Assembly (NCBI GenBank): GCA_964386865.1
Contig: CAYLUN010000004.1
Coordinates: 28,123-92,122 of the forward strand
From: an uncultured Lentisphaeraceae bacterium
GTDB taxonomy: Bacteria; Verrucomicrobiota; Kiritimatiellia; RFP12; UBA1067
Direction: 5' to 3'
Length of the DNA: 64,000 nucleotides
The notes beneath the pieces were generated by a model, which was not told where the DNA came from, did not search any database, and saw only the letters and a program-made list of their open reading frames with translations. This document shows positions 52,388-52,995 of this stretch, one piece after another. Both the position numbers and the translations under genes were made by a program. Each line of letters begins with the position of its first letter. Positions within the stretch are counted from its first letter, which is position 1.

Positions 52388-52714
52388 ATGTCGATGACCT
52401 ATCTGAAAAACGTGGTTACGCTGCGGCTGAGCTGCGACGCCTGCGTCGGCTGCGGCCGCTGCCTGGAGGTCTGCCCGCACGGCGTTTTCGCGCTGGACGC
52501 GGGCAAGGTTCGGGTCGGCGCGCGCGACGCCTGCATGGAGTGCGGCGCCTGCGCCCGCAACTGTCCGGTCGGCGCGCTGTTTGTGAAGAACGGCGTGGGC
52601 TGCGCGGTCGGCATCCTGAACGCGAGGCTGGGGCGTACGTCGTCCTGTTGCGGGGAAGGCCAGCCGTGTTGCTGCTCCGGAGAACCGGATGTGAAAAATA
52701 GAGGAGGCGCGTGA
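52388..52714 (+). CDS. hgcB: mercury methylation ferredoxin HgcB
   Basis: CVGCGRCLEVCP and CMECGACARNCP (2x[4Fe-4S]) plus the Cys-rich tail SSCCGEGQPCCCSG. It starts 10 nt after hgcA. Confidence 0.88.
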   Translation: MSMTYLKNVVTLRLSCDACVGCGRCLEVCPHGVFALDAGKVRVGARDACMECGACARNCPVGALFVKNGVGCAVGILNARLGRTSSCCGEGQPCCCSGEPDVKNRGGA

Positions 52715-52995
52715 TGGATGAAAAGACGAAAGAGCTGATCGCGATCGGCGCGTCGGTGAGCGCCCATTGCCAGCCGTGCGTGACGTACCATGTTGGAAAA
52801 GCGCGGAAACTAGGCATCGGCGAGGATCTGATCCTGGAGGCGGTGGCCGTCGGCCAGATGGTGGAGAAGGGGTCGAGCTCGGCGATGCGCGACTTTGCTC
52901 AGGGGCTTTTGGGAAAACCTGTGGTGGCGGGGTGCTGTCCCGAGAAAGGGCGGCTCGAGACGCCCGCCGGGGACGCGCGGTGCCCCTGCGGGTGA
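52714..52995 (+). CDS. carboxymuconolactone decarboxylase/AhpD-like CxxC protein with a Cys-rich C-terminal tail
   Basis: …ELIAIGASVSAHCQPCVTYHV… is the AhpD-core CxxC…H motif. The tail is …GCCPEKGRLETPAGDARCPCG. Its ATG overlaps the hgcB stop (TGATG). Confidence 0.78.
   Translation: MDEKTKELIAIGASVSAHCQPCVTYHVGKARKLGIGEDLILEAVAVGQMVEKGSSSAMRDFAQGLLGKPVVAGCCPEKGRLETPAGDARCPCG

Follow-up and report, generated by a model that had tools for sequence, protein, structure and literature searches.

A small AhpD-like CxxC protein encoded behind hgcB in a Lentisphaeraceae bacterium associates more strongly with arsenic-type gene clusters than with HgcAB

Does a small thiol protein encoded directly behind hgcB belong with the mercury methylation proteins HgcA and HgcB, or with the arsenic genes around them? 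The question is raised by a 64-kb window (64,000 nucleotides (nt), positions 28,123 to 92,122 of contig CAYLUN010000004.1 from an uncultured Lentisphaeraceae bacterium; coordinates below are those of the window unless a locus is named), in which an open reading frame (ORF) at 52714-52995 (+) follows hgcB and encodes an AhpD-like protein of 93 amino acids with six cysteines, reading MDEKTKELIAIGASVSAHCQPCVTYH...GCCPEKGRLETPAGDARCPCG. The native role of HgcAB and the controls on methylmercury production are open questions in the field, and the presence of arsR, acr3 and arsC as neighbors has prompted the proposal that HgcAB is linked to arsenic detoxification. An initial annotation of the window saw in the AhpD-like protein a possible dedicated partner of HgcAB, which our analysis does not support. 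The gene associates more strongly with arsR and with a pair of genes for a membrane-anchored thioredoxin-fold protein (U221/U222) and a DsbD-like membrane protein than it does with hgcAB; it is neither a universal HgcAB subunit, and should not be read as one, nor a general partner of the mercury methylase.

The junction itself is as the initial annotation described it. The hgcB TGA (52712-52714) and the ATG of the AhpD-like ORF (52714-52716) overlap as TGATG, and a Shine-Dalgarno sequence, AGAGGAGG (52700-52707, +; including AGGAGG), lies inside the end of hgcB. The ATG at 52714 is taken as the start in preference to a GTG at 52711 because homologs begin MDEKTKEL. The gaps further upstream are short (3 nt separate arsR from hgcA, and 9 nt separate hgcA from hgcB), and a scan of 5.3 kb found two promoter-like sites where 0.4 were expected: P1 (TTGACA-17-TAAATT, 50869-50897, +) before arsR and P2 (TTGACG-17-TATATT, 53058-53086, +) after the AhpD-like ORF, with none between arsR and the end of the AhpD-like gene. 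No terminator-like site was predicted from arsR to P2 except one weak match within hgcA. Promoter-like sites that only flank the unit, with no strong terminator between them, fit a four-cistron unit arsR-hgcA-hgcB-ORF, and together with the overlap, the Shine-Dalgarno sequence and the short gaps they support the earlier proposal that the AhpD-like gene closes the arsR-hgcA-hgcB operon as a translationally coupled cistron. The first of these cistrons, arsR1 (50912-51316, +), encodes an ArsR/SmtB-family regulator (HTH_5 55.7 bits, NF033788 90.1 bits), 67% identical to its paralog ArsR2, and its translation probably begins at the ATG at 50924, judged from the arsR2 alignment and a GAGGGG Shine-Dalgarno sequence. 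HgcA (51320-52378, +), the corrinoid protein with its invariant cap-helix motif NVWCAAGKG, and HgcB (52388-52714, +), a 2x[4Fe-4S] ferredoxin whose C-terminal region is rich in Cys, both score above the NCBIfam thresholds (399 bits on NF040863, cut-off 275, and 111.8 bits on NF040864, cut-off 99). HgcA begins with an N-terminal Cys-Cys extension, MSGVCCGGTCG (51320-51352), in agreement with the CC/CU extensions reported by Haft & Gwadz.

If the coupling to hgcB reflected a dedicated function, the gene might be expected wherever hgcAB is found, and the initial annotation had suggested a survey of hgcAB neighborhoods. We examined 80 hgcA loci from GTDB representative genomes of many phyla, with HgcA 40-59% identical to that of the window, and scored the presence of the AhpD-like gene with a hidden Markov model of the subfamily. 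The gene was found in just one of these diverse loci, that of the Victivallis metagenome-assembled genome (MAG) with the closest HgcA (L001), where it again lies directly after hgcB. Four closer relatives with HgcA 63-81% identical (L166-L169) were sampled regardless of whether they carried an AhpD-like gene. Only L169 has the order hgcA-hgcB-AhpD-like gene; L166 and L168 lack the gene and have thioredoxin and DsbD_TM genes upstream of hgcA instead. L167 has an HgcA 81% identical to that of the window and keeps of the AhpD-like gene no more than the first nine codons (MDEKTKELI), which run straight on into the downstream promoter and operator (L167 8276-8350). Inspection of the sequence shows that about 310 bp, equivalent to roughly 52742-53053 of the window, have been cleanly deleted. 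Since the gene is deleted in L167 and absent from L166 and L168, it is dispensable for keeping hgcAB, even in near relatives of the window.

A second survey was centered on the gene and comprised 80 metagenomic loci that encode the subfamily. hgcAB is present in 21 of them, while 59 lack it and nearly all of these 59 are ars-type clusters, so that neither gene requires the other: the AhpD-like gene occurs without hgcAB and hgcAB without the AhpD-like gene. Where hgcAB is present, the AhpD-like gene is at most 64 nt downstream of hgcB in 14 of the 21 loci, 12 of these at -11 to +22 nt, and upstream of hgcA in three (L121, L123 and L145). An APC-family permease (about 445 amino acids, Pfam AA_permease_2) stands between hgcB and the AhpD-like gene in four loci (L082 696-2048, L084 3691-5025, L090 36-1415 and L096 3603-4949). 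The neighborhood surveys are thus divided in what they say of the earlier claim, in that the tight hgcB junction recurs in 12 other loci but the gene is all but missing from the diverse hgcAB loci.

These results bear directly on the proposal that the AhpD-like protein is an accessory dedicated to HgcAB, a CxxC protein that would re-reduce the cysteines of HgcB and HgcA or pass Hg(II) or methylmercury between them, its own presence in ars clusters being secondary. Such a protein would account for the stop/start overlap and the Shine-Dalgarno sequence, both of which are real, for the retention of the close junction, and for a share of hgcAB-bearing loci (21 of 80) far above any plausible genome-wide background, but not for the single occurrence in the hgcA-centered survey, for the nine-codon remnant and the two absences, all in close HgcA relatives, or for the 59 loci in ars-type surroundings without hgcAB. 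Likewise, the hgcAB-linked copies are spread over several tree branches, on either side of hgcAB, and the Cys-rich tail of the protein resembles that of HgcB, yet the domain occurs fused to ArsM and ArsD and never to HgcA or HgcB. We consider a dedicated HgcAB accessory unlikely, and a general HgcAB partner was rejected on the 1/80 count and the deletion remnant in L167.

What the gene does travel with is evident from the same gene-centered loci. At least one classical ars gene is present in 68 of the 80, and an ars, U221 or DsbD-like gene in 74; on the contigs of the six exceptions (1.1-6.8 kb) no ars-type neighbor was recognized, and hgcAB is present in five of the six. By gene, ArsR was found in 50 loci, U221/U222 in 44, ArsC in 25, Acr3 in 24, ArsA in 20, ArsD in 20 (plus four fusions), and ArsM and a P1B ATPase in 19 each. 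The upstream neighbor is ArsR in 20 loci (25 with more distant copies) and HgcB in 14 (18 with more distant copies). U221/U222 is the commonest neighbor of the AhpD-like gene, and U221 stands immediately downstream of it in 34 loci. The usual order is arsR, the AhpD-like gene, the membrane-anchored thioredoxin-fold protein (U221/U222) and a CcdA/DsbD-like membrane protein with a Cys-Cys pair, and both U221 and the DsbD-like gene are present in 23 of the 40 loci that have at least 3 kb of downstream sequence. hgcAB is a passenger inside this arsR/U221/DsbD-like cluster. From the other side, ars-family genes occur within 6 kb in 31 of the 80 hgcA loci.

Gene fusions point the same way. The C-terminus of ArsM is fused to an AhpD-like core 65-73% identical to that of the window in nine loci, the Cys-type fusions including L115, L116, L132, L148, L154, L159 and L160 (L160 scores 313 bits on NF008823, cut-off 263), and the N-terminus of ArsD is fused to the core in four (L107 scores 110 bits on NF033727, cut-off 90). 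No fusion to HgcA or HgcB was found among the related loci examined, and a tblastn search returned no plasmid-borne homologs with deposited annotation. One operon, in a Kiritimatiellae MAG (L164), joins most of these genes in the order ArsR, AhpD-like gene, U221, DsbD_TM, ArsD, ArsA, Zn-ribbon protein, ArsC, an unknown 269-residue protein, SHOCT protein, second AhpD-like gene, Acr3, methyltransferase, HgcA and HgcB. Its two AhpD-like paralogs lie at 231-512 and 6001-6339 of that locus, and the methyltransferase directly upstream of hgcA is a 186-residue S-adenosylmethionine (SAM)-dependent enzyme (7451-8011).

The protein is well defined. Its matches to Pfam CMD (carboxymuconolactone decarboxylase; PF02627, 42.7 bits, cut-off 23) and TIGR00778 ahpD_dom (36.4 bits, cut-off 27.8), its 333 homologs, many of them 60-86% identical over the full length, and its confident AlphaFold core establish the ORF as a real gene, one of a family of about 535 clusters at 50% identity (E<=1e-10) that includes fusion and tandem forms. 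The AlphaFold model, built from 104 homologs, has helices at residues 3-16, 20-32 and 37-66, with a predicted local distance difference test (pLDDT) score of 97-98 over residues 1-66 and about 48 over the disordered tail, residues 67-93. The core (52714-52911, +) holds Glu7, His18-Cys19-Gln-Pro-Cys22 and His26 in its three helices, and the tail, ending ...GCCPEKGRLETPAGDARCPCG, and the stop codon occupy 52912-52995 (+). Foldseek and phmmer searches against the PDB returned only AhpD/CMD-type structures (3bey, 7y4r, 2cwq, 1vke/1p8c and M. tuberculosis AhpD), on which the model superposes by Foldseek with a root-mean-square deviation (rmsd) of 1.3-1.6 Å over about 62 residues; the query-normalized template modeling (TM) score is about 0.6, a value limited by the disordered tail. 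Across the 104 sequences H18, C19, P21, C22 and H26 are invariant and E7 is kept in at least 90%. The profile alignment places positions 10-53 on residues 121-163 of M. tuberculosis AhpD, equating C19 with C130, C22 with C133 and H26 with H137 and, by extrapolation, E7 with E118, and the Glu...Cys-x-x-Cys-x-x-x-His signature is present with AhpD spacing. The AhpD-type CxxC core noted in the initial annotation is therefore confirmed by the Pfam and TIGR00778 matches and the predicted fold, and so is the Cys-rich tail, for most relatives also end in CC...CC or CC...C.C tails. The clade of the window shares the tail pattern CC-x3-GR(F/L)(E/D)TPAGD-x2-C(H/P)CG.

The core is nevertheless a minimal one. 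The CMD match covers only positions 21-70 of the 84 in the Pfam profile, and the solved homologs are aligned from residue 33-72 on; because the oligomer-building N-terminal helices of all solved relatives are missing, the protein is a minimal AhpD core and not a complete domain. Many family representatives of 160-210 residues (e.g. P0410-P0414, P0424 and P0429) consist of two such cores in tandem, which suggests that the 93-residue form works at least as a dimer. No curated model reached its cut-off for the stand-alone subfamily. The window protein has no match to TIGR00777 (AhpD proper) at E<=0.01, and its relative P0113 scores 19.6 against a cut-off of 192; on NF041047 (the GSU3128 family, cut-off 110) the window protein scores 30.7 bits and eight relatives 28-45 bits; and on NF041537 (ArsM/AhpD-domain selenoprotein, cut-off 510) it scores 42.3 bits, being a stand-alone protein with Cys and not selenocysteine (Sec).

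In their source annotations the homologs are called 'AhpD family alkylhydroperoxidase' or 'carboxymuconolactone decarboxylase family protein', and these names, like the CMD match itself, would suit a generic antioxidant AhpD or a gamma-carboxymuconolactone decarboxylase that lies beside hgcB by chance. This is scarcely credible given the ars/U221/DsbD-like context in 74 of 80 loci, the TIGR00777 score far below cut-off, and a core that is truncated and bears a CxxC. True decarboxylases are not known to have a CxxC. Family scans found no AhpC/peroxiredoxin or pca genes in the island of thiol and metal genes around hgcAB (45.7-58.7 kb), and the antioxidant and decarboxylase assignments were rejected on gene context and the truncated core.

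The explanation that we favor, and hold to be fairly probable as a whole, is that the ORF product is a small cytoplasmic AhpD-fold dithiol protein of a distinct subfamily, that this subfamily is an accessory component of ArsR-controlled arsenic/soft-metal gene clusters in anaerobes, and that the protein would serve, in the manner of a thioredoxin, the Cys-dependent As- and Hg-handling proteins encoded in the same operon. A redox-type CxxC stands at the start of helix 2 with the Glu/His relay of AhpD on its flanks, and the flexible Cys-rich tail could bind As(III) or Hg(II); acting as a reductant or thiol-exchanger, the protein would maintain the cysteines of co-encoded proteins in the reduced state or clear of bridging metal(loid). 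Its clients may be the thioredoxin-type ArsC, ArsM and ArsD where these are present, and the U222/DsbD-like pair; in the window the CC motifs of HgcA and HgcB, in the Cys-rich N-terminus of the one and C-terminus of the other, would join them. In the lineage of the window, probably Kiritimatiellia/PVC (Planctomycetes-Verrucomicrobia-Chlamydiae), hgcAB is located between arsR and the AhpD-like gene, which is thereby the fourth, coupled cistron. Of all this, the analysis establishes the gene, its fold and conserved residues, its place in the operon and its association with ars clusters; redox activity, metal binding and the choice of clients are inferred.

A redox-active dithiol is indicated by the AhpD relay, by the CQPC motif and by the Sec (CxxU) forms in related curated families. 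Stand-alone members have their best partial NCBIfam match in the AhpD portion of the ArsM/AhpD selenoprotein model, in which the second Cys is Sec, and a CxxU of this kind is typical of redox sites. A role in reduction or thiol exchange fits the Cys tail with its variability, the fusions to ArsM and to ArsD, the adjoining CcdA-like/thioredoxin-fold pair and the thioredoxin-type ArsC; the ArsC of the window has its best match in the thioredoxin-coupled family (TIGR02691, at 151 bits below the cut-off of 174).

The two usual partners of the AhpD-like gene have unusual cysteines of their own. U222 (55814-56437, +), characterized by family alignment, a predicted structure and neighborhood counts, has an N-terminal CGPGCNC, one predicted, probably transmembrane helix, a domain of thioredoxin fold that lacks CxxC (pLDDT above 90, with Foldseek matches to protein disulfide isomerase b' domains and thioredoxins), and a C-terminal CGAGGCGPSGC. 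In its family the N-terminal CxxxCxC is invariant, as are C15, C19, C21 and C196, and the C-terminus reads CGxxGCGPSGC; no Pfam or NCBIfam model matches U222, and some family members carry an N-terminal Zn-ribbon. The CcdA/DsbD-like membrane protein (56448-57167, +) has a Cys-Cys pair in its first transmembrane segment (SACCTLP) and a third Cys in the fourth (SSLACNPG), where canonical proteins have a single Cys each. Direct Pfam and NCBIfam scans gave no match for it, and the assignment was made because it is 51% identical to a homolog in L164 that Pfam annotates as DsbD_TM. A CC-type DsbD-like gene (SACCTLP or CCNP, plus the third Cys) lies directly upstream of hgcA in nine of the 80 hgcA loci (L001, L015, L021, L022, L034, L045, L047, L049 and L064), which span Bacteroidales, Chloroflexota, Zixibacteria and Victivallis; in the literature searched we found no link between hgcA and DsbD beyond one incidental co-mention.

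By analogy with MerP-MerT-NmerA or with ArsD, these cysteines raise the possibility of a thiol relay, namely that the AhpD-like protein, U222 and the CC-type CcdA-like protein carry metal(loid) and not electrons, moving As(III) or Hg(II) across the membrane to ArsD/ArsA, ArsM or HgcAB. The three genes adjoin (U221 directly downstream in 34/80, and both partners in 23/40 of the longer loci); three-Cys sites are found in U222, on both sides of its predicted membrane helix, and in the DsbD-like protein (CC + C); the lack of a CxxC in the thioredoxin-fold domain of U222 argues against a normal redox acceptor; and CC-type DsbD-like genes precede hgcA in the nine loci just named. AhpD-ArsD fusions exist, and the CC...CC tails of the AhpD-like family resemble the vicinal Cys pairs of the ArsD tail, although these tails are variable and sometimes Cys-free. 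The relay, however, is conserved, with Glu7 kept in at least 90% of the sequences and His26 in every one, and so is the CQPC motif; both indicate redox catalysis over simple metal binding, as does the use of CxxU by the Sec-containing relatives, and such a carrier seems to us possible but rather unlikely. Its most far-reaching form, an undescribed MerP/MerT/NmerA-like relay of As(III)/Hg(II) through the three proteins that feeds ArsM or HgcAB, is a long shot; if true, it would account for a phenomenon so far unexplained, the active uptake of Hg(II) that some methylators couple to methylation.

Returning to a thioredoxin-like dithiol protein of arsenic gene clusters, several observations weigh against this explanation or limit it. 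The hgcB-adjacent copies fall in at least five places of the family tree, among ArsR-adjacent ones, which is more than one accidental insertion would give; the tree is a neighbor-joining tree on 66 residues, of low resolution, and serves only to show that the hgcB-linked copies are not one tight clade. The tail motif of the window clade (GRFETPAGD..CHCG) and the tight hgcB junction are conserved and could reflect a specific interaction with HgcB or HgcA. The AhpD-like gene is not obligatory for the U221/DsbD-like pair, which also occurs without it (L166, L167 and L064). Family members without a Cys tail exist (P0113, P0042 and P0036), the missing N-terminal helices of characterized AhpD-like proteins leave oligomeric state and activity uncertain, and electron transfer and metal(loid) transfer are not separable from sequence alone.

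The 13-kb island in which the gene lies (45.7-58.7 kb) is one of arsenic and heavy-metal genes. In order it encodes ArsR3, an ArsP-like permease, a Trx_3 protein (ArsE-like), a membrane thioredoxin, a canonical DsbD_TM protein, a sodium:solute symporter, ArsR1, HgcA, HgcB and the AhpD-like protein, followed, after the second promoter-like site, by a 58-residue CGPGCGC protein, a P1B ATPase without a heavy-metal-associated (HMA) domain, ArsR2, U222, the DsbD-like protein, ArsC and Acr3. An operator-like inverted motif, TTCGCCACATAACGAA (50896-50911), overlaps the 3' end of P1, and a second, TTCGACACATAGCGAA (53086-53101), has as its first base the last base of P2. The motif TTCG-N8-CGAA that they share occurs exactly twice in the 64-kb window, against 0.24 expected, once after each promoter-like site, and nine related loci (L081, L083, L084, L091, L097, L104, L118, L120 and L160) also have it upstream of ars genes. 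Its place after both promoter-like sites and its recurrence upstream of ars genes suggest one ArsR-type regulon for the two, and through the shared motif the AhpD-like cistron is probably co-regulated with the ATPase/U222/DsbD-like/ArsC/Acr3 unit.

The remaining genes of that unit are readily assigned. The ATPase (53414-55351, +) is a P1B-type heavy-metal ATPase with a CPC motif and without the N-terminal HMA domain (TIGR01525 585 bits, cut-off 346); arsR2 (55387-55776, +) is the paralog of arsR1 described above; ArsC (57169-57597, +) is an arsenate reductase of the low-molecular-weight phosphatase type (LMWPc 72 bits); and Acr3 (57696-58745, +) is an arsenite efflux permease (TIGR00832 451.6 bits, cut-off 282.8). 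The 58-residue protein (53156-53332, +) has no Pfam or NCBIfam match. Its gene directly precedes that of the HMA-less ATPase, an arrangement found in 13 related loci, and its CGPGCGC is the same motif as at the N-terminus of U222; it may be a detached metallochaperone for the ATPase. A second thiol-rich cluster at 45692-48918 comprises ArsR3, the ArsP-like permease, the Thioredoxin_3-type protein (77 residues, ArsE-like, CPKC), the membrane-anchored thioredoxin and the canonical DsbD_TM protein; L166 and L168, both without the AhpD-like gene, have this set upstream of hgcA. Just after the island, an anaerobic ribonucleotide reductase, NrdD (58953-61082), and an overlapping radical-SAM ORF (60851-61708), possibly its activase, are consistent with a strictly anaerobic host.

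Among characterized proteins, one of the closest is M. tuberculosis AhpD (PDB 1knc, 1gu9), an all-helical protein with thioredoxin-like activity according to the structure depositors. The helical cores superpose with an rmsd of 1.3-1.5 Å over 62 residues and the Glu/CxxC/His spacing is identical, but the mycobacterial protein has 177 residues against 93, and the window protein lacks the N-terminal half, carries a Cys-rich tail, lies in an ars/hgc context with no AhpC partner gene nearby, and falls far short of the cut-off of TIGR00777. In sequence and fold the best matches are small hexameric CMD/AhpD-like proteins of unknown or antioxidant function (3bey, O27018; 1vke/1p8c, TM1620; 2cwq, TTHA0727; 7y4r, RclX), which are similar in size and share CxxCxxxH; they differ in an additional one or two helices at the N-terminus, in the lack of a Cys-rich tail and in having no known arsenic or mercury link. 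With the 'arsenite methyltransferase/AhpD domain selenoprotein' family NF041537 a link between AhpD-like domains and metalloid methylation is already established: its AhpD part (profile 281-330) gives the best partial NCBIfam match, and the ArsM-AhpD fusions of the related loci are non-Sec counterparts. The window protein differs from that family, and from NF045649 (MduS) and NF041047 (GSU3128), in standing alone, in having Cys in place of Sec, and in its scores (42 against 510, 27 against 380 and 31 against 110 bits).

Thiol accessory genes are a known part of ars clusters, and include ArsD, a metallochaperone, ArsE, a Thioredoxin_3 protein paired with ArsP, and ArsT/ArsX, a thioredoxin reductase and thioredoxin. 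Bacteroides ars operons also contain thioredoxin-like and CcdA-like genes. The AhpD-like protein resembles ArsD, ArsE, ArsT and ArsX in being a small Cys-dependent protein of ArsR-controlled clusters, but it is all-helical where they have a thioredoxin fold, and there is no sequence relationship. The ArsP/Trx_3/Trx/DsbD_TM set of the window at 46.1-48.9 kb is comparable to the ArsE-ArsP pairing, and ArsE is mentioned in the Gionfriddo preprint.

The gene order arsR-hgcAB with ars genes nearby is likewise that of published operons: arsR immediately precedes hgcAB, the two being reportedly co-transcribed in Pseudodesulfovibrio, and acr3, arsC and arsM have been found near hgcAB (Goni-Urriza 2020; McDaniel 2020, PMC7438021; Gionfriddo 2022/23; Peterson 2025, PMC11984097). 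In the literature searched by terms, these papers included, no AhpD/CMD, U221 or DsbD-like neighbor of hgcAB or of ars operons is mentioned, and we found no curated family or paper that describes the stand-alone AhpD-like subfamily. Set beside what is already known (arsR-hgcAB, ars genes near hgcAB, and the ArsM/AhpD-domain selenoproteins of NCBIfam), the new element is an uncharacterized thiol module that recurs in the ars clusters of anaerobes, formed by the AhpD-like CxxC protein, the thioredoxin-fold membrane protein and the CC-type CcdA-like protein. Some loci have its AhpD-like domain as a fusion with ArsM or ArsD, and in methylators of the PVC type the domain is co-cistronic with hgcAB; Kiritimatiellia-type hgcA can dominate lake water columns, and next to the known systems the module offers concrete candidates for proteins that would sustain arsenic and mercury methylation through thiol and redox chemistry.

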